Positions 1 to 41,300 of a stretch of 64,000 nt of DNA are shown here, piece by piece. How positions within the stretch are numbered: the stretch's first letter is position 1; each line of letters begins with the position of its first letter. This DNA is from Takakia lepidozioides. Lineage: Eukaryota > Plantae > Bryophyta. The DNA lies in assembly GCA_030704615.1 (NCBI GenBank), contig CM060733.1:52824001-52888000 (forward strand), written 5' to 3'. A program made the translations under genes and the position numbers. Under the pieces are notes generated by a model. It was not told the DNA's origin, made no database searches, and saw nothing but the letters and a program-made list of their open reading frames with translations.

Positions 1-123
1 AGCCCCATCGTTAGTCGCCGTCTTGCAATCTGTGAACTTGAGCTAGGATCTCGTGTGTTCAAGGTCTCCTAGTAGCTTGGCCTTGCATTTCTTGTTAGCC
101 TCCCATGATTATATCCACTGCCA

Positions 124-3100
124 CTATCCAATGCATTGTGGAATAACCAATCCCCATCCGGAACCATCTCAAGAGGTGGAGTCAAGCATCACATATGCCA
201 ACCTCTAGAGCATCGATCACACACCAGCATGGTGGCTGCCCCTTTAGCAGACCCACACAACATGCACCTCAAACTTGTAGATACCACTGCCAGGTTTGGG
301 TCAATCCTGCCATCGACATTCGGAAGGTGACATGGCGCACAATTACGCACATGGTCCTTCCAAGTTATGCCATCCCGACCCTCCAAGACCAAGACGCCTG
401 AGGGCAAGACCTCTCGAACCCTCAAAATAACACGTCCTGCAGTCACATCTAAGGTCGTAGGAGCAGTCTGCTGCAGATAGACATAGTCACCAGGGTTGAA
501 TCTCCAAACCCCAGGACGATAGCCCCCACCACGTATGGTAGCATACCTCAACGTATCACGGTGTTTTGCAATGGCAAGGTTCTCGAAAGCCATGGGCATG
601 ACTTTCTTGAACAACTCTGCACGCTGCTCATATGCACATGCCCACACGTCTGGATCGTCAAGGTTAAGAACTGTAGCAGCTTCCCTGCGAATGGATGTAG
701 GCAAATCCGGCTCTTGGCCAAAGAGAAGAAAGTATGGTGAGAAGGAGGCAAGTGATGCTTGCTTGCTGAACCTGTAGCCCATGGCTAACCAGGGTAACTG
801 AAGGTCCCAATCTCCTAGGTGTCCCTTCTACAAGCCATACTTGCGCAAACCCCTCTTTACTGTCTGAACAACTCTCTCTGCCAAGCCATCAGCCTCAGGA
901 TGATCCCGAGAAGTGGTGCGGTGGTCTATCAAGGCCTTGTCACACAAAGCCTGAAACTCCCCCAAGAACTCTCTCCCTTGGTCCGTGAGTACCTCAGCTG
1001 GAGCACCGAATCGGCTAAGCACACAATCCAAGAATGCATACGCAGCTCCCTCACTAGCCTTATCGGGCAATGGAACCAACTCAATCCACTTGGAGAAGTG
1101 CTCCACCATCACCAACACGTACTTGTTGTGGCGCATGGTCAGTAGCAACGGCCCTGCGAAGTCAAGACTCCACCTGTAGCCCAATCCCATGATCGGAAGA
1201 GGGTGCAATTGTGGAGTAGGGGCGTTGAATGAAGCACGCACCCTGTCACACACCATGCACCTAGCCACAAATTGTTGCACCTCTGTGTGCATACCACGCC
1301 ACCAATACTGCCCCTGCAGTAGGCTATGAGTGCGTCGCACTCCAAAATGCCCCAACTCCTCGTGGGCATGCCGCACTAACCGTGCCCGCTGTGTTGGGTG
1401 AGGCACAATCCTCACTCGACCATCCTCCCACACTCGGAGCAGGTGTGTCCCCTCCCACTTGAACCTCTTGGCTCGTTGTAGGATCCGATCCCTCTCCTTG
1501 GCAGTCACAGTGGCTGCAGTGTCTCCAGTGCGGAGGTAGTCCAACACAACTGAATCCTCATGTATATCTTTGGCGCCACCTTGCTCATTGCTGGCCTCAG
1601 GGTCCTCAGACACTTGATCTACAGTCATCCCTGTTGCAGGTCCAACCTGGCCTTCCGCTGCCAAGATACACAGAAATGCAGATGCATGCCATCCGGGCAC
1701 CATCTCCTCGTCCGTCTCACCATGCCACCGAGCTCCAGTGTCATCCTGCTGGCTCGTGTATGGATTGCGACTCAACCCATCTACATTGCGATTGACCAAA
1801 CCCGGTCGATGCACAACCTGAAAGTCATATTCTTGAAGGATGAGTGCCCACCGTGCAAGCTTCCCCGTAAGCTTGTCTGACTCCATCAACCACTTGAGTG
1901 GTTGGTGATCCGTGACAAGGGTGAAGAGATTGCCGTATAGATAGCACCTGAAGTGTGTCACGGCCCACACTGCAGCTAAGCATTCTCCCTCATATGAGCT
2001 ATACTTAGACTCTGCAACGTTGTTCGAGCGGCTAGCATAAGCCACTACGAACTCTCTTCCCTCATCATCCACCTGTGTGAGCACCGCTCCAAGCCCCAGC
2101 ATGCTCCAATCTGTATGCAGCTGAAAAGGACGCCCTCTAATAGGCCGTCTCAAGATGGGCGCCGAGGTCAACCTCGCCTTAAGCTCTTGAAAAGCTTGTT
2201 CTTGCTCATCTTCCCACTGCCACTCCTGGTCCACCTTGGTCAGCTTGGTTAGAGCCTTTGCAATGGCACTAAATCCCTTAACAAACCGTCTATAATAGTT
2301 TGCTAACCCCATGAAAGCTCGAACTCGGCTCACATCCGTGGGGCGTGGAACCTGTGCAATGGACTCTACCTTAGTCTGTTGTACCCCCAATCCTCCAGGA
2401 TATATCATGTGACCCAGATACTCAATCTGGTTGTGGAAAAACTTGCACTTTCCCGGATGTAACTTCAATCCGTGCGCCCTCAAGCGCTCAAATTCCCCCT
2501 GAAGGTGTCTCTCATGCTCCTCCACCGTAGCACTAAAGATGATGATGTCATCTATGTAGCACCGAACAAACTCCACCCCTGCTAGAATCCTGTCCATGAC
2601 TCTTTGAAACTCAGCAGGAGCGTTTTTAAGCCCAAATGGTAAGAACCGCCACTGGTATAGGCAATCCTTCCCGTGCTCATTGATCCCCTAGAATGTCGTC
2701 TTTTGCTTATCCGACTCCTTGATTGGCAATTGGTGATATCCGGATCGTAAATCCAACATGCTAAAGACCTTGGCATGCCCAATGGCATCAAAGATCTCCT
2801 CTGGTGTTGGCATGGCATACCTATCGGACTTGGTCTGACGATTTACAGGCCGGTAATCACCGCACATACGTCTCTCCGTCCAATTGCCATAGACATCCTT
2901 CTTGGCTGGCATCATTGTGGCTGAAGCATACTCTCTCCCAGATAGCTCCACCAAACCAGCCTCCCAAAGGTCCTGAGTTCTCATCTGAATCAAGGACATC
3001 TCCATGTCACTGTATCTATAGGGTCTCCGAAAGATTGGCGTGTCAGTAGCCAATTCAATGCAAATCTCTTGACCCTTCAGTGCTCCTAAGTCCTTCAAAC

Positions 3101-3257
3101 TGAAGGCAAAGCAATTCCTGTAAGCCCTCAGGAACCACCGTATACGTCGTCTCTCTCCTCCGGTGACAATGGGTCCAATGTCAGGCTCCCAATTGTCCTC
3201 CGTAACTGCAACCTTAAGTCCAGTGGGCTTAGAGGTAGAGGACGCGTCCCGTGGTTG
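124..3257 (-). pseudogene. pol of copy 1: RT - RNase H - DDE integrase - PHD finger (nonsense-disrupted)
   Basis: RT: RMCGDYRPVN, LDLRSGYHQ, YIDDIIIFS. RNase H: HTDWS, YSSYEGECLA, TDHQPL. Integrase: HAHEELGH..CMVC zinc finger, WSLDFAGP, TDQGREF, GLAERVVQ. PHD: CMLC..MLVCDRCSRGWHM*CLTPPLEMVPDGDW. Confidence 0.93.
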
Positions 3258-6011
3258 CTATACCGCAACCTCTTGAGCAGTACTCCCTGCCTGCTCAGTC
3301 AATGACAAGGCCTCATCCTGCCCCATCATCTCATCCTTGAGGACCTCATCAACCCGAGAAGAATCCCCAACCTCATCCATCACAGCTGCCTTCGCTGCCA
3401 ACTCCCTCTGAACCTCGAGCACCTCTCACGTGTGCCATGGATGCGGCCTGCACATCGTGGTCCTCACCTGTTCGCCCCCACTCGCTGCCTGTACCGTCTC
3501 GGTAGGCAGGGAGACCATGAAGGGAAGTACACTCCGTACTCTGCGCTGCTCAGCCGTAGCCAAGCTGATAATCCAGGTCAAGCAATTGAGATCCATTGCT
3601 TGCCCCAACACCTGACGACGTGATGCCTCAGAAAGAGATGGCACCGCTGTGGTACCAGTGGTAAAACCCATTGCCCGCTCGCGCTCGTCAGTATTGGGCT
3701 CCACTTATTGTTGCAACTGGCTATTCCACAAGAGGCCAGGTCCACCATCCCGAAAAGCATGGGATCCTAGGAAGCTGAGCAGTGTAGGTAATGCTGCTCG
3801 TGATTGACCCACCCTGTTGACCACTGCCAAAGGCGAACGGTCATCGTGTCTCACACGTTGAGACTGCCTCCCTGTGTCCAAAATGCTATCCACTGTGAGG
3901 TGTGCTGGACGCTGCACCCCATCAAATGCACGCTTGAGCAGTGCGGGTGACATCAAGTTAGTCCACCATAGCCGTGGACGATGAGCCCGTGATCCCACTG
4001 CAGCTGCATCCAGCAACATTGCTGATCCAAGCCACGACCGGACTTGATGCACACTGGCCATCACCCTGGCCCGAGAATCGCCCATCAGTGGCACATTCTC
4101 CAAGATGTATGCTGGAGATACAGCTTGATGAAGCTGCAAGTGGCGCAAAACCCGCACCATCTCCCAAAACAGACCCGTCCTTGAGTCTCGCAATCCATTG
4201 CCATGCCCGGCTGATGAATGCCCTTGGCAGGGCCAACTTGCCACTACCAGATCAATGGAGCCAACCTGCTCCAAATCCTGCACCCCCAGCAACAAAATGT
4301 CTGCTAGCAAGGCTTGTTGGTATCCACGAACTGCAGACACTGGCAACAAATCAGGGTACTGCTGTACCAGCTGAGCAACATGGCGCAGTGAGACGCGTCG
4401 TGCAGTCTCATCCCTCTCCACATACAGGTAACGTCAAACTCGTATACCTGCCTGCAGCACTGCAGCCAATCCAGTGCTGATCCCGCCAAACAAGTCCAGA
4501 AGGCATATGCCTTCATCCGGGCACTGCCACACAAGAGATGTAGTGTCCAATGGCAACAACTGAGGTGGTCCTGGTGCAATCACCGCACTCTCCTCCTCTC
4601 CTGACGGTACGAAAGCGTCCACCCAGGCTTGTTGCACCCGTCCATCAGCAGCCTGCTGCAAATCTTTGCCCGTACCCCACAATGGAGTGTGAGCAACCAT
4701 GGCAGGCAACTCTGCCATACCATGCATGTCATCCTGCTCTGCTGGAGGTGGCACATCCTTTACATGGGCATTGCCTGCCAGCAACTCTCCATGCCAACTA
4801 ACTGCAGCCGTAAAGGCGGCTAGTGTTGGCATCTTGCCCCGCTGGGCAGCCGCAATATCCCCAATGAATGTCACAGGGAGCTATGCACGACGACCATCCC
4901 CTGACTGCCAGCCAGGCCTGTAGGATGCTGACTCCTCCCAAAAGTTCAGGGTGAAGCCCATGGGGTATAACACTGCCCCACCAACGAGGACATCGTAAGA
5001 GACCGCGTCTGTCACAATGGCCTTGGCTCGCATCACTGAGCCATCTGTAGGGTGATCCGGCTGTAGTCCAATGGCCAACTCACGCCGTGTCATGCCCCGA
5101 GCCTGCTCTGATCCTCCCAGAGATGTCTGTATCTGGAAAGGACAAGGCTCCATATCCGCTTCCATGAGGCCCAAACCTATGATAGCAGCTCTGCCCAACA
5201 TCAGTGGCTGAGCTCCCGAGTCCAACAAGACCCGAAGTGGCCGGTACTTCTTGCCTGCCGGTCCACTCAATGAGAAAATGTCATCCTGGTTGTCTAACAA
5301 GACAACTCCAGGTGTCACCATGGCGCGTTCAAAGGCTGGCCTAGCTGGCAGCTCCGTCAACCTGGCAGCTGCAGCTTGCCATGGCGCAGCCGTGGCAGTC
5401 CTGACCCTCAAATCCGATGATCCCTCTGCCACTACACCTTCCAGTAACTCCGCAGAAGATGAAGTGACCTCCCCACTCTCACAGAGTGTTGCTGCTAGTC
5501 TGAACACTGCAGCTGGTCTTACCCCCGGCGTCGCAATCATGCTTGCCGAGAATAGTGGGGCTTGACACACAGAGGTGGCTGCCCCCAACAACACATCGGC
5601 TGCACTAGCCTTGGCAGCAGATGTCAGTGCTGCACGTGTAGCTCTCCCCAATGGCATAGTAATCTCCGCCTCGGTAACAGCCGGGCGAGAACTAGGTGCC
5701 ATGGATGGCGTCGACACTGTCTCCGCCAATGTGAATGACTAAGGAAGCCTCGCCTGACGGCTTGCCTCTCCACGCTGTGGATCCAATTCCACCTCTGCAC
5801 CTTGTAGATCAGGAACTCGTGCTGCTCCTCGAGTCACGGCTGCAGCAGACTCCACCTGCTCTAGTGGTAGTGCTGCTCCGCACATGAATCCTATGCCTCC
5901 CATATCTCCTCCCTCAGGAGCAGGAGGTGGACCATCCCGCCTGGGAGCCAGTACCACCTGAGCTGTAGCCATGGCAGCGAGCCTCTGCTCTAGCTGCTGA
6001 AGCCGGTTGGC
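3258..6011 (-). pseudogene. ORF1 of copy 1: Gag C-terminus - aspartic protease - DNMT3-like C5 cytosine methyltransferase (about 3565-4510)
   Basis: Protease VLLDSGAQ and DVLVG. MTase motif I LLDLFGGISTG, II ERD, IV DLVVASWPCQGHSSAG (PCQ at 4224-4232), VI YILENV, VIII AHRPRLWWTNL, IX ERERAMGF, X RRQVLGQAM. Ends at TAG 3258-3260. Confidence 0.92.
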
Positions 6012-6148
6012 TTCACCCCTAAGGATCCTGTTGGTCTCAGTCTGTGTAAAAATTAAGGGTACCCCACAGATCCCGTAAAAGCGTCTAAGTCCCAAGCAGC
6101 CCTCTAACATTTACCCCTCCTCCTCTCAAAAAGCCGTGTCCTCACGGT

Positions 6149-9100: not shown

Positions 9101-9700
9101 CAATGATTGGGCCCGACACAATGATCGGAGACTTTGCAGCAGTGCCTTGTAACCTCTTCATCTCGTCCACCAATCCGTTGTACATTAGCTCCGCCCAAGC
9201 GACATCTTTTCCCCTCAAAGTTTTCAGGATCTCTTCTGTGAAAGACCTGCTCAAATATTGTTGGTTCTGTTTCATGACAAACAGAACGTTCAAGATTTGG
9301 CCAACCTCCCTAAGCCCTGGGTACTCGGCTTTGGTACAAGCAAAACCTTGAGTTTTAAAGAAACTCCCTTCTTGGAACAAATTCTCTATCCGCAATCTTA
9401 CCCTGTGCTCATCCACCTCCACATGTCCTGATGGCAAATCAAACAGTTGCTGCAGGTACTGGGGAGTAATTTCTATATCTACTCCCCTCACTTGAGTAAC
9501 TCCTGTCCGAGGCTCAAAGTTTTAGAGAAATTGTATCATGAACTGCCGATGATGCAAGGACCAGTCTTTGAGTAGCAATCCCTCCAATCGCAGCTCCTTC
9601 AGTAGCTGCACCGCCTGTGGTGCAGCGATCGTTTGCTTCTGTAAGATTGTGGTGCTTTTCACCTTGATATCTTCCATTCCTTTCACTCTCTTCATTCTGG
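6149..9700 (-). pseudogene. Degenerate long ORF (about 1100 aa) of probable TE accessory type, with a coiled-coil region
   Basis: ORFs 9522-10400, 8565-9491, 8386-8574, 8200-8382, 7619-8251, 6949-7875 and 6482-6955 chain together through single stops or frameshifts. ..FL*NFEPRTGVTQVRGVDIEITPQYLQQLFDLP resembles plant retrotransposon extra-ORF domains. 7619-8251 is a Q/E/L-rich heptad region. No introns seen. Confidence 0.55.
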
Positions 9701-10427: not shown

Positions 10428-10710
10428 AGGCTGTGTTGAGCTGTGACAGGCTGTGTCATACTATGGTACGCTGTGATAGGCTGTGTCGCACTGTGGTACG
10501 CTGTGACACGCTGTGATGGGTTGTGATAGGTTGTGTGACACTGTGATGGGCTGTGATAGGCTGTGCCACTCTGTGATGGGCTGTGATAGTTTGTGTCGCG
10601 CCGTGTTGGGCTGTGATAGGCTGTGTCGCGCCTTGATGGGCTGTGATAGGCTGTGTCGCGCCGTGATGGGCTGTGATAGGCTGTGTCGCGCCGTGTTGGG
10701 CTGTGATACG
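10428..10710. repeat. Minisatellite, 30-bp unit built from 10-bp subunits (GCTGTGATAG-GCTGTGTCGC-GCCGTGATGG)
   Basis: About 9 tandem 30-mers are directly visible. They produce the repetitive ORFs 10406-10723, 10461-10916 and 10513-10815. Confidence 0.95.
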
Positions 10711-26240: not shown

Positions 26241-26269
26241 GTTTCTTCACCCCAAGGGTTACCTTCCGC

Positions 26270-26302
26270 TAAAAGGCGGACACCTTTGTGACACCAATCG
26301 GT
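26270..26302 (-). mobile_element. 3' part of the SINE interrupted by retrotransposon copy 2
   Basis: Minus strand ACCGATTGGTGTCACAAAGGTGTCC matches GAGTGGTGTCACAAAGTTGTGCC just 3' of the B-box in the 25615 copy. Confidence 0.7.
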
Positions 26303-26388
26303 TGTCGTGCGAATACATATTGCTACACAACTACATCGCTGTCCAGACCACACCACACATATATGCACAAATAAGTAGTCTAGCACAA
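26303..26388 (-). repeat. Terminal repeat A, outer copy (86 bp)
   Basis: Near-identical to 26741-26825 (TGTCGTGCG..ATACATAT..CTACACAACTACATCGCTGTCC...GTAGTCTAGCACAA). Confidence 0.92.
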
Positions 26389-26738
26389 TGATAAACAAAC
26401 TTGAAAAGACACACACTCTCAAACACAGAAATATGCAATCCCTCAAGATCACTCTTAAGAAATAGTCGAGCAGGGGCACCCCAAGCTATGGGGACTCCAC
26501 CCCACAACAACCTACACTCCATCATAGCACACTCAGATCTGAAGAATGCAGGAGCTCGGTCGCGCAGGCTCAACTCAAGAGAGATGAGCTGCGCGACTGC
26601 CGCTCTCGTGAAGATAAGACAGACCAGGTGTCAAACTAACTTGACACCTGATTTAACACTTGACCTAAATCCAAGTGTTAAATACAAATAACTAGTTTTA
26701 TTCTAGCTGTTTTCACACTGTGCTTATTTAACTTGACA
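26389..26738 (-). repeat. Terminal repeat B, 3' copy (350 bp, TG...CA)
   Basis: Near-identical to 37942-38299; differences are mostly 1-bp indels. Confidence 0.95.
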
Positions 26739-26740
26739 GC

Positions 26741-26825
26741 TGTCGTGCGCATACATATCGCTACACAACTACATCGCTGTCCAACCACACCACACATATA
26801 TGCACAATAAAGTAGTCTAGCACAA
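26741..26825 (-). repeat. Terminal repeat A, inner copy; joined to B through GACA-GC-TGTC
   Basis: Direct repeat of 26303-26388, separated from B by 2 bp (26739-26740). Confidence 0.92.
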
Positions 26826-26836
26826 TCGCCCCCCTA
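26826..26836 (-). promoter_or_regulatory. Putative polypurine tract
   Basis: Minus strand AGGGGGGCGA lies immediately before the inner A repeat. Confidence 0.55.
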
Positions 26837-27083
26837 GCTGGTGGATAGGTCCCTCTACCTCCAGATAGCTACAAGATGTAATAGCCACAGCCGTACTAAG
26901 TCCTCTATCACTGTCTTATCGTGCTCAAACTCTATCAACCAAGAGGCGGGTACAAGAGTAGCCCCATCGTTAGTCGCCGTCTTGCAATCTATGAACTTGA
27001 GCCAAGGATCTCGTGTGTTCAAGGTCTCCTAGTAGCTGGGCCTTGCGTTTCTTGTTAGCCTTCCATGGTTGTATCCACTCCCA

Positions 27084-30000
27084 CTATCCAATGCAATGTG
27101 GACATAACCAATCCCCATCCGGAACCATCTCAAGAGGTGGAGTCAAGCATCCCATGCCAACCTCTAGAGCCGATCACACCAGCATGGTGGGCTGCCCCTT
27201 TAGCAGACCCACACAACATGCACCTCAAACCTGCAGATACCACTGCCAGGTTTGGGTCAATCCTGCCATCGACATTCGGAAGGTGACATGGCGCACAATT
27301 ACGCACATGGTCCTTCCAAGTGATGCCATCCCGACCCTCCAAGACCAAGACCTCTCGAACCCTCAAAATAACACGTCCTGCAGTCACATCCAGGGTCGTA
27401 GGAGCAGTCTGCTGCAGATAGACATAGTCACCAGGGTTGAATCTCCGAACCCCAGGACGATAGCCCCCACCACGTATGGTAGCATACCTCAACGTATCAC
27501 GGTGTTGTGCAATGGCAAGGTTCTCGAAAGCCATAGGCATGACTCTCTTGAACAACTCTGCACGCTGCTCACATGCACGTGCCCACACGTCCGGATCGTC
27601 AAGGTTAAGAACTGTAGCAGCTTCTCTGCGAATGGATGTAGGCAAATCCGGCTCTCGGCCAAAGAGAAGAAAAGTATGGTGAGAAGGAGGCAAGTGATGC
27701 TTGCTGCTGAACCTAGCCCATGGAACCAGGGTAACTGAAGGTCCCAATCTCCTAGGTGTCCCTTCTGCAAGCCATACTTGCGCAAACCCCTCTTTACTGT
27801 CTGAACAACTCTCTCTGCCAAGCCATCGGCTTCAGGATGATCCCGAGAAGTGGTGCGGTGGTCTATCAAGGCCTTGTCACACAAAGCCTGAAACTCCCCC
27901 AAGAACTCTTCTCCCTTGGTCCGTGAGTACCTCAGCTGGAGCACCGAATCGGCTAAGCACACAATCCAGGAATGCATACGCAGCTCCCTCACTAGCCTTA
28001 TCAGGCAATGGAACCAATTCAATCCACTTGGAGAAGTGCTCCACCATCACCAACACGTACTTGTTGGCGCATGGTCAGTGGCAACGGCCCTGCGAAGTCA
28101 AGACTCCACCTGTAGCCCAATCCCATGATCGGAAGAGGGTGCAATTGTGGAGTAGGGGCGTTGAATGAAGCACGCACCCTGTCACACACCATGACCTAGC
28201 CACAAATTGTTGCACCTCTGTGTGCATACCACGCCACCAATACTGCCCCTGCAGTAGACTATGAGTGCGTCGCACCCCAAAATGCCCCAACTCCTCATGG
28301 GCATGCCGCACTAACCGTGCCCGCTGTGTTGGGTGAGGCACAATCTCACTCGACCATCCTCCCCCACTCGGAGCAGGTGTGTCCCCTCCCACCTGAACCT
28401 CTTGGCTCGTTGTAGGATCCGATCCCTCTCCTTGGCAGTCATAGTGGCTGCCGTGTCTCCACTGCGGAGGAAGTCCAACACAACTGAATCCTCATGTATA
28501 TCTTTGGCGCCACCCTGCTCATTGCTGGCCTCAGGGTCCTCAGACACTTGATCTACAGTCATCCCTGTTGTAGGTCCAACCTGGCCTTCCGCTGCCAAGA
28601 TACACAGAAATGCAGATGCATGCCATCCGGGCACCATCTCCTCGTCCGTCTCACCATGCCACCGAGCTCCAGTGTCATCCTGCTGGCTCGTGCATGGATT
28701 GCGACTCAACCCATCTGCATTTCGATTGACCAAACCCGGTCGATGCACCACCTGAAAGTCATACTCTTGAAGGATGAGTGCCCACCGTGCAAGCTTCCCC
28801 GTAAGCTTGTCTGACTCCATCAACCACTTGAGTGGTTGGTGATCCGTGACAAGGGTGAAGAGATTGCCGTATAGATAGCACCTGAAGTGTGCCACGGCCC
28901 ACACTGCAGCTAAGCATTCTCCCTCATATGAGCTATACTTAGACTCTGCAGCATTGTTCGAGCGGCTAGCATAAGCCACTACGAACTCTCTTCCCTCATC
29001 ATCCACCTGTGTGAGCACCGCTCCAAGCCCCAGCATGCTCCAATCTGTATGCAGCTGAAAAGGACGCCCCCTGATAGGTCGTCTCAGATGGGCGCCGAGG
29101 TCAACCTCGCCTTGAGCTCTTGAAAAGCTTGTTCTTGCTCATCTTCCCACTGCCACTCCTGGTCCACCTTGGTCAGCTTGGTTAGAGCCTTTGCAATGGC
29201 ACTAAATCCCTTAACAAACCGTCTGTAATAGTTTGCTAACCCCATGAAAGCTCGAACTCGGCTCACATCCGTGGGCGTGGAACCTGTGCAATGGACTCTA
29301 CCTTAGTCTGCTGTACCCCCAATCCTCCAGGATATATCATGTGACCCAGATACTCAATCTGGTTGTGGAAAAACTTGCACTTGCCCGGATGTAACTTCAA
29401 TCCGTGCGTCCTCAAGCGCTCAAATACCCCTGAAGGTGTCTCTCATGCTCCTCCACCGTAGCACTAAAGATGATGATGTCATCTATGTAGCACCGAGCAA
29501 ACTCCACCCCTGCTAGAATCCTGTCCATGACTCTTTGAAACTCAGCGGGAGCGTTTTTAAGCCCAAATGGTAAGAACCGCCACTGGTATAGGCAATCCCT
29601 TCCCGTGCTCATTGATCCCCCAGAATGCCGTCTTTTGCTTATCCGCCTCCTTGATCGGCAACTGGTGATATCCGGATCGTAAATCCAACGTGCTAAAGAC
29701 CTTGGAATGCCCAATGGCATCAAAGATCTCCTCTGGTGTTGGCATGGCATACCTATCGGACTTGGTCTGACGATTTACAGGCCGGTAATCACCGCACATA
29801 CGTCTCTCCGTCCAATTGCCATAGACATCCTTCTTAGCTGGCATCACTGTGGCTGAAGCATACTCTCCACCAGAGAGCTCCACCAAACCTGCCTCCCAGA
29901 GATCTTGAGTCCTCATCTGAATCAAAGACCTCTCCATGTCACTGTATCTATAGGGTCTCCGAAAGATTGGCGTCAGTGGCCAACTCAATACGGATCTCTT

Positions 30001-30187
30001 GACCCTTCAGTGCTCCCAAGTCCTTCAAACTGAAGGCAAAGCAATTCCTGTAAGCCCTCAGGAACCGCCGTATACGTCGTCTCTCTCCTCCGGTGACAAT
30101 GGGTCCAATGTCAGGCTCCCAATTGTCCTCCGTAACTGCAACCTTAAGTCCAGTGGGCTTAGAGGTAGAGGACGCGTCCCGTGGTTG
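27084..30187 (-). pseudogene. pol of copy 2 (RT-RNase H-integrase-PHD), frameshifted
   Basis: Same motifs as copy 1. The PHD ends CLTPPLEMVPDGDWLCPHCIG* with the stop at 27084-27086. Confidence 0.9.
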
Positions 30188-33100
30188 CTATGCTGCAACC
30201 TCTTGAGCAGTACCCCCTTCCTGCTCAGTCAATGACAAGGCCTCATCCTGCCCCATCATCTCATCATTGAGAACCTCCTCATCCCGAGAAGAATCCCCAA
30301 CCTCATCCATCACAGCTGCCTTCGCTGCCAACTCCCTCTGAACCTCGAGCACCTCCCACATGTGCCATGGATGTCTACACCTCGTGGTCCTCACCGGCTC
30401 GCCCCCACTCGCTGCCTGTACCGTCTCGGTAGGCAGAGAGACCGTCAAGGGAAGTGCACTCCGCACTCTACGTTGCTCAGCCATAGCCAAGCTGACAATC
30501 CAGGTCAAGCAATTGAGATCCATTGCTTGCCCCAACACCTGACGACGTGATGCCTCAGAAAGAGAAGGCACCGCCGTGGTCCCAGTGGAAAACCCCATAG
30601 CCCGCTCTCGCTCGTCGGCATTAGGCTCCACTAACTGCTGCAACTGAGCATCCCACAGGAGGCCAGGTCCACCATCCCGAAAAGCATGGGATCCTGGGAA
30701 GCTGAGCAGTGTAGGGTAATGCTGCTCGTGGTTGACCCACCCTGTTGACCACTGCCAAAGGCGAACGGTCATCGTGTCTCACACGTTGAGACTGCCTTCC
30801 TGTGTCCAAAATGCCATCCACGGTGAGGTGTGCTGGCCGCTGCACCCCATCAAATGCACGCTTGAGCAGTGCGGGTGGCATCAAGTTAGTCCACCATAGT
30901 CGTGGACGATGAGCCCGTGACCCCACTGCAGCTGCATCCAGCAACACTGCTGACCCAAGCCACGACCGGACTTGATGCACACTGGCCATCACCCTGGCCG
31001 AGAATCACCCATCAGTGGTACATTCTCCAAGATGTATGCTGGAGATACAGCTTGATGAAGCTGCAAGCAAAAATCCGCACCATCTCCCAAAACAGACCCG
31101 TCCTCGAGTCTCGCAATCCATTGCCATGCCCGGCTGATGAATGCCCTTGGCAGGGCCAACCTGCCACTATCAGATCAATGGAGCCAACCTGCTCCAAATC
31201 TTGCGCCCCCAACAAGGAAATGTCTGCTGGCAAGGCTTGTTGGTATCCACGAACTGCAGACCAGGCAACAAGTCAGGGTACTGCTGTACCAACTGAGCCA
31301 CATGGCGCAGTGAGACGCGTCGTGCAGTCTCATCCCTCTCCACATACAGGTAACGCCTTACCCGCACACCTGCCTGTAGCACAGCAGCCAATCCGGTGCT
31401 GATCCCGCCAAACAAGTCCAGAAGGCAAATGCCTTCATCCGGCCGCTGCCACACAAGAGGTGTGGTGTCCAATGGCGACAACTGAGGTGGCCCTGGTGCA
31501 ATCACCGCACTCTCCTCCTCTCCTGACGGTACAAAAGCTTCTCCCAAGCTTGTTGCACCCGTCCATCAGCAGCTTGCTGCAAATCCTTGCTCGTACCCCA
31601 CAACGGAGTGTGAGCAACCATGGCAGGCAACTCCGCCGTACCATGCATGTCATCCTGCTCTGGAGGTGGCACATCCTCTGCATGGGCATTGCCTTCCAGC
31701 AACTCTCCAGGCCAACTAACTGCAGCTGTGAAGGCGGCTAGTGTTGGCATCTTGCCCCGCTGGGCAGCTGCAATACCCCCAATGAATGTCACAGGGAGCT
31801 GTGCACGGCGACCATCCCCTGACTGCCATCCAGGCCTGTAGGATGCTGACTCCTCCCAGAAATCCAGGGTGAAGCCCATGGGTATAACACTGCCCCACCA
31901 ACGAGGACATCGTAAGAGACCGCGTCTGTCACAATGGCCTTGGCTCGCATCACTGAGCCATCTACAGGATGATCCGGCTGCAGTCTAATAGCCAACTGAT
32001 GCCGTGTCATGCCCCGAGCCTGCTCTGATCCTCCCAGAGATGTCTGTATCTGGAAAGGACAAGGCTCCATATCCGCCTCCATGAGGCCCAAACCTGCAAT
32101 AGCAGCTCTGCCCAACATCAGTGGCTGAGCTCCTGAGTCCAACAAGACCCGCAGTGGCCACTTCTTGCCTGCCGGTCCACTCAAAGTGAAAATGCCCCTG
32201 GTTGTCTAACAAGACAACTCCAGGTGTCACCATGGCGCGCTCAAAGGCTGGCCTAGCTGGCAGCTCCGTCAACCTGGCAGCTGCAGCTTGCCGGGCGCAG
32301 CCGTGGCAGTCTTGACCCTCAAATCCGAGGATCCCTCTGCCACTACACCTTCCACTAACTCCGCAGAAGATGAAGTGACCTCCCCACTCTCACAGAGTGT
32401 TGCTGCTAGTCTGAACACTGCAGCTGGTCTCACCCGGCGTCGCAATCATGGTTGCCCGAGAACAGTGGGGCTTGACACACAGAGGTGGCTGCCCCCAATA
32501 ACACACCGGCCGCACTAGCCTTGGCAGCAGGAGTCAATGCTGCACGTGTAGCTCTCCCAATGGCATAGTAACCTCCGCCTCGGTAACAGTCGGGCGAGAA
32601 CTAGGTGCCATGGATGGCGTCGACACAGTCTCCGCCAATGTGAATGACTGAGGAAGCCTTGCCTGACGGCTTGCCTCCCCACGCTGTGGATCCAATTCCA
32701 CCTCTGCACCTCGTGGCTCAGGAACTCGTGCTGCTCCTCGAGTCACGGCTGCAGCAGACTCCACCTGCTCTAGTGGTAGTGCTGCTCCGCACATAAATCC
32801 CATGCCTCCCATATCTCCTCCCTCAGGAGCAGGAGGTGGACCATCCCGCCTGGGAGCCGGTACCGCCTGAGCTATAGCCATGGCAGCGAGCCTCTGCTCT
32901 AGCTGCTGAAGCCGGTTGGCCATGCCTTGGTCAACACCCTGACCTCCGCGTCCTTGGCCATGTTGAGCTTGCCCTTGGCCTGCACCTCGTGCCCGACCAC
33001 CTCGTCCTCTCTGGGCTGGTCCACCTCGCCCCCGGCCACCATTGTTCCCTTGGAACTGGCCTGGGCGCAACTCAGGATGCAAGTCATAACACTGGGCATC

Positions 33101-34376
33101 TCCATGCCCATACTTGCCACAATGCCCACACTGCAACTGTGCAGGCTGTGCTTGTGCCGGCCTTCTGCCACTCTCTGGGCAATCTCTCTTGACATGGGGT
33201 CCTCCACATGTCCAACATATCACCCCTGGTTGCTGTTGGCCTGCAAAAGATGCCACGGGCCTCTGCACCTGAGGTCCCCTGTAAGCTCCATGGAACTTGG
33301 GCTGGGCAACCTTGCCCCCCTGACCACGCTGTTGGGCAGTCCCTTGTGCTTGTGGGCTGACAGCTGTGCCCCGTACAGGCATGTCCTTGCCAAATCCAAT
33401 TGTAACAACTCGCTCCTCCACCATGTTGAGCTCAATCCGCTCAGCCAGCAGAAACACATCTGCTAATGTGGGTTGGGCTGCTGTGTAACAGGGTTGCATC
33501 TCGCACCCTTCTCTTGAGCTCCTTGTCCAGAATTCCATACCAAAACTGGATTGCCTGAGCTTCAGTAACCCCTTGGGTCACACTTATCAAGCGCCTCATA
33601 CGAGTGTACGCCTCTCGCAGGCTCTCACTGGGGTTTGCGCTGGAAGTCTTGCAAACTTCGCAGCTTCTCTGTCCGTACACCTTGGTAGTTCCTCCGCAAC
33701 TCCTGGAAGAACTCCACCACCGGGTTGAATCTAGGCACATGTGTTGTAGTGTGGCAGGAGGAGTAGTAGCACCTTTGAACTGGTACCACCTGCAGAAGTA
33801 CCAGCACTACCTGCTCCACTACTAGTGCTGGCAGTGGGAGCTATTGGTACTGATGCAGCTACTGGTCGCGTCGTGCCTCGAGTAATGGAGATGTAGTCAG
33901 GTGACCAATACATCCTCCACTCCTCAATCTCTGCTTCATGTCCTCGCCTGAACTCGTGGTAATCGTCCATAGGCGGGCCTTCCAAATGCTGGAACAGTCC
34001 CTTCCACGCCATGAATGGGGTGAATAGATGTGGATTGCGCATGCTGCAAATCACACCAGCTGTCGAACTCCTGGATAAAGTCATCCAACTCGATTGTGCC
34101 CACAGCTCCAGAGTACCTACGAGGCCCCTTGGTAGCTCCATACATCTCCTCCATGTCGTCCCACAACAATGGCGAATGAAAGTGCACACCTGTTGATGAA
34201 GCCTCCGAGCCTGTGTCTGACTCTACAGTAATTGAGGGTGGCGGTGAAGGTGGTCTGAACCGAATACCTCGTCTTGTGAACCCACTCTCACTGTTACTGC
34301 CTGTAGCCGTACTCCCCTCAAAACCCTTGGGTAACTCCGTAATGACACTCACAATGTGCACCTCCTCCAGTGACAC
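30188..34376 (-). pseudogene. ORF1 of copy 2: Gag (two CCHC knuckles) - protease - DNMT3-like MTase (about 30495-31430), frameshifted
   Basis: CWTCGGPHVKRDC and CGHCGKYGHGDAQC knuckles; VLLDSGAQ; LLDLFGGISTG; DLIVAGWPCQGHSSAG (PCQ at 31147-31155); AHRPRLWWTNL; ERERAMGF. Ends at TAG 30188-30190. The true start is uncertain (first ATG near 34154). Confidence 0.9.
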
Positions 34377-34886
34377 TATAAGGCTCTAGTACTAATCTAA
34401 TAGTGACACGGGTGGGCACCTGTTGCAGTCTAAGGGTCATATCCCATGGCTCAGGGCACCTGCACCTGCATCCACCGCAAGAACTCCTATGGTTGGCTGG
34501 TCATCAACCCAGCCTCACCATAGAAGAAACACTGGTGGTCTTGCTGGTCATCACTCCAGCCTCACCACCGACAGCATACTCTAGGATTGACCGGTGATCA
34601 AATCCGGCCTAATCCCTATGAAAGCAAGCGCCCACACAAAACCAACATGGCGCACAGTCAAGCATGCAGGTGTTGGGGGGATCCAAACACAAGAAATCAA
34701 AACATCAACACCCCCACACCAAAATCCAGCTGCAATGCTGATCCTGCAGAATATCCCAGCCCAAAACCCCGGACTGACTGGCCTCCACCAAGAGAGGCTT
34801 TGGCAACTACAAGTACAAGGTAATGAAAATAGTACAGAGATGGAGGGGAAGAATAGAAGCCCGACCAAGCAAGATCTAATCCTGAT

Positions 34887-35576
34887 CTATGCTATCAACT
34901 GCCAGACTTCTCTCAAAGTGCCTCGCTCTGCATGATGGTAAGGTGTAGGAGGTATATCTATGTCCAGAAACCTGCCACTAACCTTGTCCCAAGCTACAGT
35001 AGCTCGCTCTAACCAACCCTCCTCCTCTTTCTGCCAGGTAGAGACAAAGCAATACTCCCCTATCTCCCGCTCACTGAACACTAAAGAAAACAAAGGTAGG
35101 GTCTGATAGTCTCTCAACTCGAAAGCTTTGAGACGGTTGCGGGTGTCCTCATTGCGAATGACTGCATCTCCTTCACGCACAACAAACATGTCATTGCTGA
35201 TGAACCCCCGCTCGTGGTTGCCCTGTGCAGAGCGTATCCGGCTGCAACCATGTCTGATTGCACAAACTTGTGTAGCTCCTGCTCCTCTGCTCCAGTACAC
35301 CACGGCCTTGTGCTGAACACCTCCCGGGGCTGTCTTTGGCTGTGTTCCAAGCCTAGCTTTCACCCACTTTGGTATTTCACCTACAGCTGCAGAACTGCTG
35401 GCTCCAACAGAGTTCTGACTGTCCAAGGCGATATTGAGGCCCTCAATGCCAACTACAGCAGTCTGTTGTCTACTGCTAATGCCTGACTCCCAGTATGCAA
35501 TCAACTCGTCCAACTGTTCTCCACTCAAATCAGTCTGAGTTCCTTGGGAAACATAAATCTTGTCCCCTTGGTGCAC
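34887..35576 (-). CDS. Extra ORF (229 aa) upstream of gag in copy 2, unknown function
   Basis: Uninterrupted ORF inside the element, absent from the equivalent position of copy 3. GTG start, with a possible true ATG near 35628 across a frameshift. Confidence 0.5.
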   Translation of the reverse strand: MHQGDKIYVSQGTQTDLSGEQLDELIAYWESGISSRQQTAVVGIEGLNIALDSQNSVGASSSAAVGEIPKWVKARLGTQPKTAPGGVQHKAVVYWSRGAGATQVCAIRHGCSRIRSAQGNHERGFISNDMFVVREGDAVIRNEDTRNRLKAFELRDYQTLPLFSLVFSEREIGEYCFVSTWQKEEEGWLERATVAWDKVSGRFLDIDIPPTPYHHAERGTLREVWQLIA

Positions 35577-36689
35577 AGGCTAAGAGAAGAGACCTGCCCT
35601 TCAACGACGTCCTCATTTCCCCCAGCCATACAAGGAGTACATCCACAGATTTGTCTCTATATAGACCAGCACAGGTTCTAGAGACAGGATTGTGGATCTT
35701 TCATGGCACACTCACACTCTAAAAATTCCATAGATTTTTAGCAGAGTCCCAAAAACAGAAACCAGGTCTAGATAGGTAGATTTCCCCTTTCTGCAGCTAT
35801 CCCTCAAAAACTGAGTCAAACGGAGCTCATTTGACAAAGATATGACCAACCAGGCTCTTTAAACATTTAAATTAGATCAAAAAGGCTTTGTTTTTTTTTT
35901 AACACCAAAACGCTTTTGTCATTACAACCTGTTCCCAGGTTATCTACGAGTTCCCGAGGTCGTTCCCCTCCAGGATTCTCCAGGCACCAAGAGCTCGTTA
36001 ATTCCAACACTCGACCTCAGTTGGGTGGGGTAACACGATTTGCTTTTCTCTGCGCGTGGGCCTGCCTCCTCGAGACCTAGAGACTACAAACCAGCGAGTG
36101 GGCGATTTCAAGAGCAGATGCACTGTGCAGCACCTTCATGGCTTATGGACAGGCGGCCTGCTGTGATGTGGCCGTCTTTGCATGGAATCCAAAGCCAAGA
36201 CCAGCTTGAAGTTCCATCAACTCGGTCTAATTCGCATCTCTCATGTTTTCCTGCAACGGGCATTGACGCCCACAATTTCCAGGGCTTGCACTGAAGCATT
36301 TCTAAGCTGTTCTTAGGCCACTAACACACCCTGTGTAGCTGCAGAAATTGTTCCCACGGGACCCTATAGATTCACCTGTAAGGCTGCTCAACGCCTGAGC
36401 TTAGAGTATGGTTGGATCACTTGCTCATTAAAGGCCCACAGAATATCTACAAAAGGACCCCAGCCTGACCACCACCTGCTTGTGCCAGCTTGTTCAAAGA
36501 TTTGCCCAGGTACTTTCCTTGTCTCTCAGCAACACTCTTTGTTTGCGGTAGGGCTTCCATTAGTAACTGGATCAACTGCCAAGCTTCCACCAGGGCACTT
36601 CTTCACAGGTAAGGAGTGGACAAAGGAAGAAGATCCAACACCATTGATCAAACCAGCAGCCCGTATGGCACCTCCGTCTAGCGCCACTG

Positions 36690-36810
36690 ACTTCAACAGC
36701 AGGCTCAGCAGGCTTTGTCCATAGGGAATGTTCAATAGTTCAAACAGCTCAGCATCACTGGCCAGCTCCAGTACAGAGTGTAGCTCTGGATCAAATGCAG
36801 CTCCTAGCAC
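36690..36810 (-). pseudogene. Captured fragment of a conserved plant YaaW-like protein
   Basis: AFDPELHSVLELASDAELFELLNIPYGQSLLSLLLKS resembles the EL..aLELAtd.EL motif of plant and cyanobacterial YaaW-like proteins (recognised from memory). Confidence 0.5.
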
Positions 36811-36944
36811 TGATTCTTTGCCAGTAAGCAGGTATATCTCTGCTGCTTTCTTGTCATGTTGTAAACAGCCTTGGAAGGTTTCAGACTTGGGGGAGTTTCA
36901 GACCTTGAGCTGGTCCACCTGTGACTTCTCGACCTGGATGAATA

Positions 36945-37210
36945 GTTGTACGCTTCAGTCTGTGCTGGGTCAGCTGGATTTGGGGCATCTAGCAGCTCCT
37001 GGATGCCAACCAGAATTTGTTTCACGGTGATGGCTGGTCTCCACCCAGAGTCCTCATTGAGGATAGAGAGGCACACTGTGCCTGACGGATACAGGTTCGG
37101 GTGAAAGAAGCCTGCGGGAAACTTGCACTTGGGTGGCTTACTGGGATAGTCCCCGCTGAAATGGATTGCAGTTGGGTAGAATCCCCTTCCCAATCAGTCC
37201 CAGCTTTGCC
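36945..37210 (-). pseudogene. SCE1: Captured intronless fragment of SUMO-conjugating enzyme (SCE1/Ubc9)
   Basis: [86 protein letters not shown]. Confidence 0.92.
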
Positions 37211-37220
37211 ACAAAACTTC

Positions 37221-37735
37221 TCGGATGATATTGCAGAGCATAAATTCCAGCAGCGCTGTTCTCAATGGCAGCAATGTCGCCCTGCAAACTGGTGGCTACG
37301 ACGTGAAAGCCTGGTGAACGTTAAACTGCCTCATCACCATGACTCATCCACACGACCGGGTTTGAGAAGCTCTCTGCATCACCATATAATTTACTATCCT
37401 TCACAGCAGCTATTTACATGCGCCCATACTCTTGGCTCTCCGCCTGCTTGACCTCTCCTCCCAGCACTTTGACAATAAGGTGCAGCCCGTAAAACGCCAA
37501 GCACTGCGATCCCATGATTCCTTGTGTACTCGAAGAAGCCATCAGGTACAGTTGGAGAGCCCTCTTCATGGACAGAACGGGGTCCACCTGAGAGAATTAT
37601 AACGGAGGGATTGAGCCCCTGAATGGCTTCCAAGGGGGTACCAGCAGGTAAGCAAAAGGGGCAAATAGAGAACTGTCGGACACGACGGTGATAAGATGCG
37701 TATACTGCGATCCGAAGTCCAGCACCACATTCCCT
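37221..37735 (-). pseudogene. Captured fragment of GMP synthase glutamine amidotransferase domain
   Basis: Across frames: VVLDFGSQYTHLI, IILSGGPRSV, VLG..YGLHLIVKVLGGEV, EYGRM, VWMSHGD, ALQYHP. Confidence 0.88.
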
Positions 37736-37925
37736 CAATGCCTGTCCGCTGCCTTCTCCATCTCTGCAACTTCTCCTTCTCCCTCTAATGGACTGTACAG
37801 CACCTATGCTCTTGCGCACAGACCAGCGAAACAGCAAGGCCAGATGGACTCCCGCCCCAAGATATATATTAAAATAATGCTAAAACAAACATTGTATCTA
37901 GCTTAGCACCAGCACACTAGATAAC

Positions 37926-37942
37926 GCTCATCTCTCTCGAGT
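37926..37942 (-). promoter_or_regulatory. Putative self-priming primer-binding site
   Basis: GCTCATCTCTCTCGAGT (37926-37942) is the exact reverse complement of ACTCGAGAGAGATGAGC (38132-38148) inside the adjacent repeat. There is no TGG-initiated tRNA PBS. Confidence 0.7.
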
Positions 37943-38299
37943 GATAAACAAACTTGAAAAGGACACACACTCTCAACACAAGAAATATGCAATCCCTCAA
38001 GATCACTCTTTAAGATAATAGTCGAGCCAGGGGCACCCCAAGCTATGGGGACTCCACCCCACAACAACCTACACTCCCATCATACGCACAGTCAGATCTG
38101 AAGAATGCAGGAGCTCGGTCGCGCAGGCTCAACTCGAGAGAGATGAGCTGCGCGACTGCCGCTCTCGTGAAGATAAGACAGACCAGGTGTCAAAACTAAA
38201 CTTGACACCTGATTTAACACTTGACCTAAATCCAAGTGTTAAATACAAATAACTAGTTTTATTCTAGCTGTTTTCACACTGTGCTTATTTAACTTGACA
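37942..38299 (-). repeat. Terminal repeat B, 5' copy (358 bp)
   Basis: Matches 26389-26738 and is not accompanied by repeat A. Confidence 0.95.
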
Positions 38300-38360
38300 C
38301 GGTGGATTGAACCCACAACCACTTCTGAGGTGGTATATGCCCATTACCACTGGCAGCAAC
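38300..38360 (-). mobile_element. 5' part of the interrupted tRNA-derived SINE
   Basis: Minus strand CCAGTGGTAATGGGCATATACCACCTCAGAAGTGGTTGTGGGTTCAATCCACCG matches 25627-25680. Confidence 0.75.
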
Positions 38361-41300
38361 TTGGTTGTCAGGTAAGGAATAGTACCTTTTGGACACATAG
38401 GCTTTTCTCCATGGCGACAGGTCATGGAGTCGTCGTCGTGGACGGTGATGGATGATGACATCCACCGCTGTGAACGGAGATGGCTCCGAACATGCCCACG
38501 CCGTTCACAAGAACAAATTCCATGAGCAATGGCCATTCATGACCATGGTCGTGACTTGTCAAAAGTTTGGAGTTGTGCCAAAATAAGAGAAAATGGGATT
38601 TATGAAGTTGCTATGATTCATTTCTTTCTTTGCCCATTAGTAAAGATGAATGTGTGGACGCTGCCCAAATGTTATATACGAACTAGTTCCTATACACATA
38701 CCTATCAAAGTGTCATTTACATTCTTAACAACTTCAATAGAGCAGCTAATAAACTGTAAACTGATTTACTCCTTTGGCACTCCAAGTAGTTGTACCAGAC
38801 CCTGTTGTTGCATTGTCTAGGTCCAATCCCCACTTGAAAGGCTTTCCGCTACCATTCTAGCTAGCTTCGCGAGATCATCTGTATATGCTAAGTCGTTATG
38901 GCTTCAGCCAGTGAGGTTTTAACATCATCAAAGAAGTGGTGGACGCTGCAATTCTCACAACATTAAAGGGTATTCTAACTTCTCATACGGAGGAGGTATA
39001 TATGAGATGGCATCACCCTAAGAAAAGGTTATGGATATGTCAAGGTACTAAGAAAAAACATCAAAACATTTATGCTCTAACAAACATTGTACCATTGGAA
39101 GCAATACCTCCAAAAGTGGTTGTCGTGTCTCCAGTGCGGATATAGTCCAACATAGCTGAATCCTCATGTATATCTTTGGCGCCACCTTGCTCATTGCTGG
39201 CCTCAGGGTCCTCAGACGCTCGGTCTACAGTCATCTTTGTTGTAGGTCCAACCTGGCCTTCCGCTGCCAAGATACACAGAAATGCAGATGCATGCCATCT
39301 GGGCACCATCTCCTCGTCCGTCTCATCATGCAACCGAGCTTCAGTGTCATCCTGCTGGCTCGTGCATGGATTGCGATTCAACCCATCCGCATCCCGATTG
39401 ACTCGGCCGGGTCAATGTTCCACCTGAAAGTCATATTCCTGGAGTATAAGTGTCTACCGTGCAAGCTTTCCTGTAAGCTTGTCTGACTCCATCAACCACT
39501 TGAGTGGCTGGTGATTCGTAACAAGGGTGAAGAGATTGCCGTATAGATAACACCTGAAGTGTGTCACGGCCCACACTGCAGCTAAGCACTCTCCCTCATA
39601 TGAGTTATACTTAGCCTCTGCAGCGTTGTTCGAGTGGCTAGCATAAGCCACTACGAACTCTCTTCCCTCATCATCCACCTGTGTGAGCACCGCTCCAAGC
39701 CCCAGCATGCTCCAATCTATATGCAGCTGAAAAGGACACCCTCCGGATAGGTCGTTTCAAGATGGGCGCCGAGGTCAACCTCGCCTTGAGCTCTTGAAAA
39801 GTTTGTTCTTGCTCATCTTCCCACTGCCACTCCTGGTCCAACTTGATCAACTTGGTTAGAGCCTTTGCAATGGCACTAAATCCCTTGACAAACCGTCTAT
39901 AATAGTTTGTCAACCCCATAAAAGCTCAAACTCGGCTCACATCCGTGGGGCGTGGAATCTGTGCAATGGCCTCTACCTTAGTCTGCTGTACCCCCAATCC
40001 TCCAGGATATATCATGTGACCCAGATACTCAATTTGGTTGAGGAAAAACTTGCACTTCCCCGGATGTAACTTCAATCCGTGCGCCCTCAAGCGCTCAAAT
40101 ACCACCTGAAGGTGTCTCTCATGCTCCTCCACCGTAGCACTAAAGATGATGATGTCATCTATGTAGCACCGAGCAAACTCCACCCCTGCTAGAATCTTGT
40201 CCATGACTCTCTGAAACTCTGCAGGAGCGTTCTTAAGCCCAAATGGTAAGAACCGCCACTGGTATAGGCAATCCTTCCCGTGCTCATTGATCCCCCAGAA
40301 TGTCGTCTTCTGCTTATCCGCCTCCTCACTAGAAGAAAAACGCGGAATAACCACTGGCCCCCTTAACCACTCTTGTCTTTTATCACTCTATAAATCACTC
40401 CAAGTAATGGTAACCACTGGTCAGTGGTTAATTCCGATGAAATGCCACGGTGGCATCATATGGAGTGGTTGGAAGTGGTTTTAACCACTGAGTAATCCAC
40501 GTGTAATATTTAATTTTATATTTATTATTCGAGATTTAGTCAAATATTTATATTAATAATGATAATATCCGACATGGACGAGTACAGTGATAAATTATGA
40601 GTGGTTAAAGACACCTCAGTGATGGAAAGTGGTTGAAACCACTTTCTACTCCACGTGTAATAATTTTTTTTTTAAGATTTTTATCATTTCAAAATATATT
40701 ATTCCACGTAGACGATGATAGTATACGTAGATCTGGAGTGGTTAAAGACCCCCCAGTGATTGGTACCACTTGCACAATGGTGGAATGTGAGTGGTTAAGA
40801 CCCTTTTGTAACTAGAACCACTCTTCAAGTGGGCACTTGTGAGTGGTTACATACACGTGAGTGATTGATACTACTTTTGTGGTGGGTTGTGAGTGGTTGA
40901 AGACACATGAGTGATGGGAGGTGATTGAAACCACTTGCTACTACACATGTAATAATTCAATTTTTATTTAAGATTTATCATTTCAAAATATATTTAATTA
41001 TGAACTATATTATTCCACGTGGACGGGGACAGTATACGTAAATCTGGAGTGGTTAAAGACCCCCATTGATTGGTACCACTTTGAGAGTGGTGTAGAGTGA
41101 GTGGTTACAGACCATTTAGTAACTGGAACCACTCGTCGTGGTTGGAACCACTCGGCCAGTGGTTACGCGTTAGTGATTACATACACACCAGTGATTGGTA
41201 TTACTTCTGTGGTGAAAAACTTTAGTGGTTTGTGTGTTGATGGAAAACCCAAAATCCATCCATCTATCGCTACATTCATCCATCCAGTCATGAGTGAGGG

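Follow-up and report, generated by a model that had tools for sequence, protein, structure and literature searches.

Why a transposon should carry an enzyme of the class that silences transposons has been a question since 2018, for which there has so far been no tractable host. It is raised again by a 64,000-nucleotide stretch of the genome of Takakia lepidozioides (assembly GCA_030704615.1, contig CM060733.1, positions 52,824,001 to 52,888,000 of the forward strand), called the window here. The window holds three decayed copies of one Ty3/Gypsy retrotransposon, all on the minus strand, and each has a cytosine-C5 DNA methyltransferase (DNMT) domain between its protease (PR) and its reverse transcriptase (RT). 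A DNMT-bearing Gypsy family, previously described from an alga alone, is thus present in land plants (bryophytes).

Identity of the methyltransferase domain

The coding region of copy 1 (108..6011) keeps to one frame between 6011 and about 110 and passes through the end of gag, PR, DNMT, a stop codon, RT, ribonuclease H (RH), integrase (IN) and a PHD finger; the frame is broken by point stops alone (nine in frame), most of gag is missing, being cut at 6011, and the 3' end leaves the window. Between the protease motif (5208-5228) and the YIDD motif of RT (2547-2558), the DNMT domain (3558..4514; 319 amino acids, with two private stops) contains motifs I (4482-4499), IV (4221-4238), VI (4092-4106), VIII (3954-3983), IX (3669-3686) and X (3603-3620) of the C5-methyltransferases. 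The same motifs in the same unrearranged order lie between PR and RT in copy 2 (domain at 30485..31436, with seven frameshifting indels) and copy 3 (45577-46542, with six); these frameshifts may be decay or assembly errors. An earlier reading of the window from sequence only had claimed such ordered motifs for all three copies and had set a profile match beforehand as the check; when the two stops in the domain of copy 1 are rendered as X, this domain matches Pfam DNA_methylase with 45.9 bits (cut-off 22) and E 6.6e-12. In its details that reading needs amendment: motif IV is GWPCQ in copies 2 and 3 but SWPCQ in copy 1, motif IX (ERERAM) is present in copies 1 and 2 but damaged in copy 3, and ILENV of motif VI, thought to be clean in copy 1 only, is found in all three.

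The top match of the domain in the PDB by sequence is DNMT3A (E 2.5e-10; 3e-24 with a profile), and a structure model of the domain (predicted local distance difference test score 95.9) has DNMT3A/3B as its top Foldseek matches (E 6e-19). DRM2 and HhaI rank below DNMT3 among solved structures, and DNMT2 is not the closest either; of the earlier likening to DNMT3 and DRM enzymes, the DNMT3 half stands by sequence and fold, but the motifs are not rearranged as in DRM. Sequence and modelled fold together confirm the assignment as a DNMT3-like C5-methyltransferase. The catalytic cysteine is kept in all 185 relatives that have a residue there (189 aligned), the glutamate of motif VI (ENV) in 189 of 189, and the two arginines of motif VIII in 186 of 189 and 187 of 188. 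Searches with the domain returned no host DNMT3, the nearest Atlas clusters being one from streptophytes and two from phages; viral contigs yielded two methylases alone, both distant, one of them from a phage-like contig.

Selection, co-inheritance and abundance

Ratios of nonsynonymous to synonymous substitution (dN/dS) between the window copies are 0.17, 0.21 and 0.12 for DNMT and 0.21, 0.25 and 0.24 for RT-RH, far below 1, in agreement with the expectation that the domain is under purifying selection. Two metagenome loci with intact domains (L022 and L031) give 0.12 for DNMT and 0.03 for RT, and the window compared with locus L014 gives 0.09 for DNMT. Distances computed from DNMT and from RT agree across 97 elements (Mantel rho 0.72, p 0.001), with a rho of 0.79 among those sharing the domain order of the window. 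The methylase is also family-wide: contig depth is 198,000-225,000 over DNMT and 200,000-270,000 over RT/IN. Single-copy joints have a depth near 40 and the element about 200,000, which suggests thousands of copies, although contig depth is not itself copy number. Contigs from two runs presumed to be RNA also cover the element, which is no evidence about its expression. On these comparisons of sequence, DNMT has long been a working component of the element.

Two sets of observations concern variation within the family. In synonymous distance, copies 1 and 2 are 0.15 apart in the methylase (3558-4514 vs 30485-31436) and 0.06 apart in RT-RH and IN, an unevenness that suggests recombination between sub-lineages. 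A form of the family with a 569-bp deletion (29464-30034) occurs in contigs of run X1 at a depth of about 1,000 and is likely a non-autonomous derivative.

Relatives and domain orders

The domain search returned 71 long proteins; Marchantia polymorpha accounts for ten of them, the closest at 71% identity, and Sphagnum fallax for one. Scanning 50%-clusters without a profile gave 243 matches below 1e-30, one of them from Calypogeia fissa, and a search with RT-RH added relatives in Calypogeia (79%), Coleochaete, Closterium and Klebsormidium. From metagenomes, 311 of 600 candidate loci were confirmed and the best 80 kept. Gag-PR-DNMT is intact as a single open reading frame (ORF) in the Marchantia protein P0002.

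In trees that leave out cluster members and partial domains, the window groups with the liverwort proteins (Marchantia, Calypogeia) and the nearest metagenome loci, with a support of 0.93 for RT and 0.98 for DNMT. In the RT tree the window and the Klebsormidium nitens element both sit in a supported clade that is separate from animal Gypsy elements, but the inner nodes are weak and the root is thin. The entries of the RT tree marked as having no methylase are mostly second-ORF proteins and are not evidence of methylase loss. Relatives have two domain orders, PR-DNMT-RT-RH-IN-PHD and RT-RH-DNMT-IN-PHD; the second, with DNMT between RH and IN (for example in P0034, P0039 and P0043), belongs to the larger clade, is one branch in both trees, and reflects either a single move or two captures of the domain.

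A conserved stop codon after the methylase

The methylase had been described as lying between PR and RT, in frame with Gag. The frame is indeed the same, but a TAG codon closes it before RT in all three copies. Among the nine stops of copy 1, this TAG, followed by CAACCA (3252..3260), is the only one common to the three copies (30182..30190 in copy 2; stop at 45283-45285 in copy 3), and it stands about 100 codons past DNMT. Its context is that of the type I readthrough signal, UAG-CAR-YYA, known from tobamovirus (PMC3542737).

Of the 80 loci kept, 58 could be scored for the stop (nine were too short and 13 were duplicates or incomplete). A stop followed by CA[AG]YY, 243-393 nucleotides past the domain, is present in 28 of the 32 non-duplicate loci that belong to the two nearer clades. 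In four loci with an unbroken DNMT (L022, L024, L031 and L051) it is the sole stop before an in-frame RT and fits CARYYA exactly. The Marchantia ORFs end 79-82 amino acids past the domain, and those of 16 other relatives 88-171 amino acids past it. It is likely, judging from this arrangement of codons, that translation yields mainly Gag-PR-DNMT, with RT-RH-IN-PHD made in smaller amount by readthrough, so that the enzyme would be packaged in bulk.

Termini, priming and target-site duplication

Copy 2 is a complete element of 12.0 kb (26303..38299) with the ends A1...B1-GC-A2-B2. Repeat A1 (37942..38299) is 358 bp long, starts with TGTCA and is 96.7% like A2 (26389..26738). A polypurine tract, AGGGGGG, precedes repeat B1 (together 26741..26836), which is 87 bp long and ends with CACGACA; B2 (26303..26388), 94.3% like B1, is bluntly joined to the end of A2. 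At the B1|A2 junction (26734..26747, palindromic and given no strand) the two termini are joined as GACA-GC-TGTC with a spacer of two nucleotides. The element is flanked by the target-site duplication ACCG on its 5' (38300..38303) and 3' (26299..26302) sides, and eight contigs of run X1 carry its empty site, joining 26298 to 38300 with four shared letters. Duplications of 4 bp occur at copy 2 and at 7 of 9 complete loci. The element thus has the PR-RT-RH-IN order, TG...CA termini, polypurine tract and 4-bp duplication of Ty3/Gypsy elements; in place of a single pair of full long terminal repeats (LTRs), its ends are A...B-NN-A-B or A...B.

A putative self-priming stem takes the place of a tRNA primer site. 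The 16 bases directly after A1 (37926..37941) are complementary to 38133-38148 in the middle of A1 (fold z = -5.9 vs 200 shuffles), and the stem is kept in three clades whose sequences differ.

All 24 distinct 5' ends start with TGTCA or TATCA with the flank directly upstream, and none has B upstream. Among the 18 3' ends listed, ten have the form PPT-B-NN-A (PPT, polypurine tract), six end at B and two could not be assigned. Among the matches listed, at least two contigs show other copies that start at A or end at B with unique flank. The A|B joint is sometimes ragged, with most of B lost in L068 and one-nucleotide changes in L048 and L082. The mirror form A-B-A...B was not seen among the loci, which points to a one-sided cut. 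The short A...B forms may come from a one-repeat circle, from a double cut or from later B-B recombination. Across four lineages the B end is CGACA in 11 of 13 distinct junctions, with TG in the other two, and the A end is TGACA in 13 of 13; these elements have a CpG observed/expected ratio of 0.34-0.67, and transitions at CG are 2.5-fold faster.

Copy 2 lies within a high-copy repeat bearing the motif GGTTCAATCC, which we take to be B-box-like. The repeat is found at 25614-25676 and, divided by the insertion, at 38304-38365 / 26200-26302; copy 2 is inserted right after the GGTTCAATCC motif, and the second repeat copy shows the empty site. The hosting repeat looks tRNA-like by eye and had no ARAGORN or Rfam match.

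The PHD finger of the integrase

The C-terminus of the integrase of copy 1 is a PHD finger (141..272; Pfam PF00628, E 6e-8), and a PHD finger follows IN in most full-length relatives. Its PDB matches are DPF3, PHF12, CHD4, KDM5B, ATXR5 and PHF21A, together with fingers of AIRE and UHRF1; its best matches are known as readers of unmodified H3K4 or of unmodified H3 tails. By analogy with them, the finger likely targets insertion.

A model for the role of the enzyme

The conserved stop, the PHD finger, the self-priming stem and the permuted ends, which had no place in the sequence-only reading, permit a sharper mechanism. Most ribosomes would stop past DNMT and few read through, so that DNMT would be made and packaged at the level of Gag, far above RT/IN. 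The RNA would start inside A and prime itself as those of Tf1/sushi do. In standard LTR reverse transcription the ends of the cDNA are set by the priming site and the polypurine tract. Applied to this element, whose priming site follows A and whose polypurine tract precedes B, that established mechanism would yield linear cDNA that carries B-NN-A at each end. The ends would then be joined, bluntly as A|B, and the integrase would cut the left internal GACA-NN-TGTC with loss of the two-nucleotide spacer, inserting A...B-A-B. Relative to this cDNA the integrated form is circularly permuted, having lost B on the left and gained it on the right, and its A|B joint resembles end joining; by analogy with the foamy-virus integrase, it is therefore most likely that the integrase cuts the internal palindrome of end-joined cDNA. 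Meanwhile, DNMT would methylate the cDNA de novo, probably at CG, so that it would arrive already marked in the manner of host heterochromatin, protected and silent, and the PHD finger would steer insertion to chromatin unmethylated at H3K4.

A role in methylating the element's own cDNA or its insertion site was proposed by de Mendoza et al. in 2018 (PMC5890265). We infer that methylating the cDNA is the simplest role for such a de novo enzyme, packaged as it would be at the level of Gag; that the packaged enzyme methylates the element's own new cDNA within the particle has, from the sequences, somewhat better than even chances. Several observations weigh against this model. All three window copies are broken. 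In the distant clade the stop is found in none of 26 loci, four of which read through stop-free, and the Klebsormidium gene model is continuous across the site with no stop; the stop is therefore a lineage trait. Most loci of the close clade have CAACCC, one base off the consensus, and since the larger clade has DNMT between RH and IN, expression of the enzyme at the level of Gag cannot be general. The residue before the catalytic cysteine is E, S or D rather than proline in about half of the relatives, and no alignment of the target-recognition region to that of DNMT3A was obtained, so that a preference for CG is not predicted from sequence. In decayed metagenome copies dN/dS is 0.57 and 0.38 for DNMT and 0.40 and 0.31 for RT; in the close clade, DNMT (0.57) thus exceeds RT (0.40). 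The six short A...B ends are explicable by recombination between B1 and B2. Finally, expression of the Klebsormidium domain left yeast DNA unmethylated, a result that its authors considered inconclusive (PMC5890265).

Alternative explanations

Alternatively, the enzyme might act on host chromatin, either where the element inserts or in trans; the PHD finger, still attached to it in a readthrough protein left unprocessed, would guide it in the way that the ADD domain guides animal DNMT3. The position of the finger after IN in most full-length relatives, the H3K4-reading function of its best matches and the adjacency of DNMT to IN in the larger clade agree with this; yet in the clade of the window the stop parts most DNMT molecules from the finger, and the Klebsormidium methylome is described as ordinary and plant-like (PMC5890265), making such a role unlikely, if still worth entertaining. 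Unlikely too is the possibility that the methylase is an integration switch. Methylcytosine mimics thymine, and methylation of the CG at the B end (CGACA) would make it resemble the TG of the A end (TGACA). The right junction would be the first to become duplex, and strand displacement would part its methylated strands. Each junction would then be hemimethylated, on the strand opposite to that of the other, and the left alone would have its methyl group on the processed strand and be cut. This would account jointly for the enzyme, for the one-sided cut implied by the absence of B upstream of all 24 5' ends, and for a CG kept at 11 of 13 B ends, despite CG depletion, opposite an invariant T at the A end, the two TG being the expected decay. 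Locus L082, however, has the long form with TG in both copies of B, and TG is in no clear excess in short forms (two of six, with one CA, vs 2 of 13); TG or CG at the B end does not separate short from long forms, and a preference of the integrase for CG by plain base contact would suffice. If the switch were true, a Gypsy element abundant in bryophytes, including Marchantia, would be integrating from a circle under its own epigenetic mark.

It is improbable that the domain binds or methylates the RNA of the element, or is structural in the particle, without methylating DNA. Stoichiometry at the level of Gag would fit a packaging role, the algal domain gave no DNA methylation in yeast, and RNA methylation has been suggested for the DNMTs of LINE elements (PMC5890265); against these stand the nearest folds, which are DNMT3 DNA enzymes and not DNMT2, the full conservation of the cysteine, glutamate and arginine residues, which favours catalysis, and the methylation of CG by the related SymbioDIRS-Dnmt3 domains (PMC5890265). 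The family does capture pieces of host mRNA, as in the leader of copy 2, which could make the domain recent, functionless host cargo. Those pieces are low-copy and broken, whereas DNMT is at family-level depth, has a dN/dS of 0.09-0.21 and follows RT in its tree from algae to bryophytes; depth, co-inheritance and dN/dS refute this explanation, to which hardly any probability attaches. Methylation of its own cDNA by the packaged enzyme is the role that we prefer.

Comparison with known elements

The closest parallel is KnitGypsy-Dnmt3 of Klebsormidium nitens, a link that the sequence-only reading drew and that is borne out: KFL_009030040 has the order PR-DNMT-RT-RH-IN with the same motifs and shares about 40% identity with the window when all matches are counted, although it is not the nearest branch. 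KnitGypsy-Dnmt3 has a Dnmt3-like domain in the same place of its Gypsy polyprotein, under purifying selection (Ka/Ks < 0.2; 0.12-0.21 for DNMT in the window), and it combines Gypsy domains with DIRS-like repeats (A-coding-B-A-B), an arrangement shared with the window element, for which the available text gives no mechanism (PMC5890265). The Takakia element differs in its land-plant host, its far higher copy number and the conserved stop that splits Gag-PR-DNMT from RT; for KnitGypsy-Dnmt3 that text mentions no PHD finger, self-priming, palindromic junction, target-site duplication or second domain order. No paper on a land-plant DNMT-bearing family, on its stop or on its junction was found in a search that subscription papers lay outside; in its available text a 2025 paper cites only the Klebsormidium report for such elements (PMC12344493), and the 2018 survey, according to its supplement, covered neither Marchantia nor Sphagnum (PMC5890265).

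SymbioDIRS-Dnmt3 of Symbiodinium likewise has a Dnmt3-type domain in Pol and A-B split repeats, and methylates CG de novo in yeast; its authors regard it as an independent capture, and it uses a tyrosine recombinase, unlike the window element with its DDE integrase and 4-bp duplication (PMC5890265). The Tf1/sushi elements and Tcn1 also have a priming site that pairs with the LTR, not with a tRNA, and a chromatin reader at the end of the integrase; the reader is a chromodomain where the window element has a PHD finger, and these elements are described with ordinary LTR pairs and no methylase (PMC6317226). The foamy-virus integrase also cleaves a palindromic junction of two ends, which there is the LTR-LTR joint and leads to a normal provirus, whereas the palindrome here lies inside the cDNA repeat and leads to a permuted insertion (PMC1180852). 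The tobamovirus signal matches the stop and the next six bases of all three window copies (PMC3542737), with the difference that the putative readthrough site here lies within pol, past the protease and the methylase.

Three other assignments were rejected. Troyka shares only the Gypsy-like order, having CG...CG ends, a 3-bp duplication and, by the available text, animal hosts only (PMC12440569); DIRS, PAT and Ngaro elements, with a tyrosine recombinase and no target-site duplication, are ruled out by the rve integrase and 4-bp duplication; and the NCGN target preference of Phygy, compared by target sites, fits none of eight duplications.

Other features of the window

The gag of copy 2 (32534..34250) encodes two CCHC-type knuckles and is frameshifted. 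Upstream of it, a 230-amino-acid ORF (34887-35579, within the minus-strand region 34805-35720) has no Pfam match; it has high depth across the family and is absent from copy 3. Between the priming site and gag, the 5' leader of copy 2 contains captured, intron-less pieces of host mRNA (36104..37791), among them a glutamine amidotransferase of the GMP-synthase type (37222-37791) and a ubiquitin/SUMO E2 (36936-37214). Their contig depth of 286-1175, vs 58,000-270,000 for the element and less than 1% of that over DNMT, marks them as low-copy cargo and so as a trait of a small sub-lineage; they are a route for gene capture.

Copy 3 is in two parts. The 5' part (44743..49791) comprises the leader, gag, PR, DNMT, the stop and the start of RT; the 3' part (39115..40326) has the remaining RT and RH and ends before the integrase. 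They are split by a CACTA-type DNA transposon inserted in RT (40327-44742), with CACTAG...CTAGTG ends and a 3-bp duplication.

Another element (6012-10720, minus strand) lies directly against copy 1 where the 5' part of that copy is cut off; its ORFs of 170-318 amino acids have no Pfam match, one is coiled-coil-like, and a tandem array of 20-bp type lies at 10430-10710. A potassium transporter gene of the KT/HAK/KUP family (18892-23371, minus strand) has at least eight exons, and its product is 56-57% identical to those of two liverworts, 53% to that of Riccia and 51-53% to those of angiosperms, a margin of a few points that, on this one gene, points to a land-plant host and tentatively to a liverwort-like one. 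On the plus strand, a decayed endonuclease-like frame with an SGDFN motif (11180-11830) is probably a LINE fragment, and decayed ORFs with a SWIM-like CxC...CKH motif and no Pfam match (60188-63870) probably represent a MULE-type transposase. Direct and inverted repeats form a complex array at 57198-58787.

Implications

The intact Gag-PR-DNMT frames of Marchantia polymorpha, a genetic model, make testable the question of why a transposon carries such an enzyme, and the leaky stop suggests where and how much of the enzyme would be made. The permuted ends, which point to a DDE integrase acting on an internal junction, set the family apart from textbook LTR elements, and software that looks for LTRs would miss it. 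Several ORFs of its relatives are publicly annotated as host genes and risk being taken for DNMTs of the host. The family probably numbers thousands of copies and could shape the methylome of its host.

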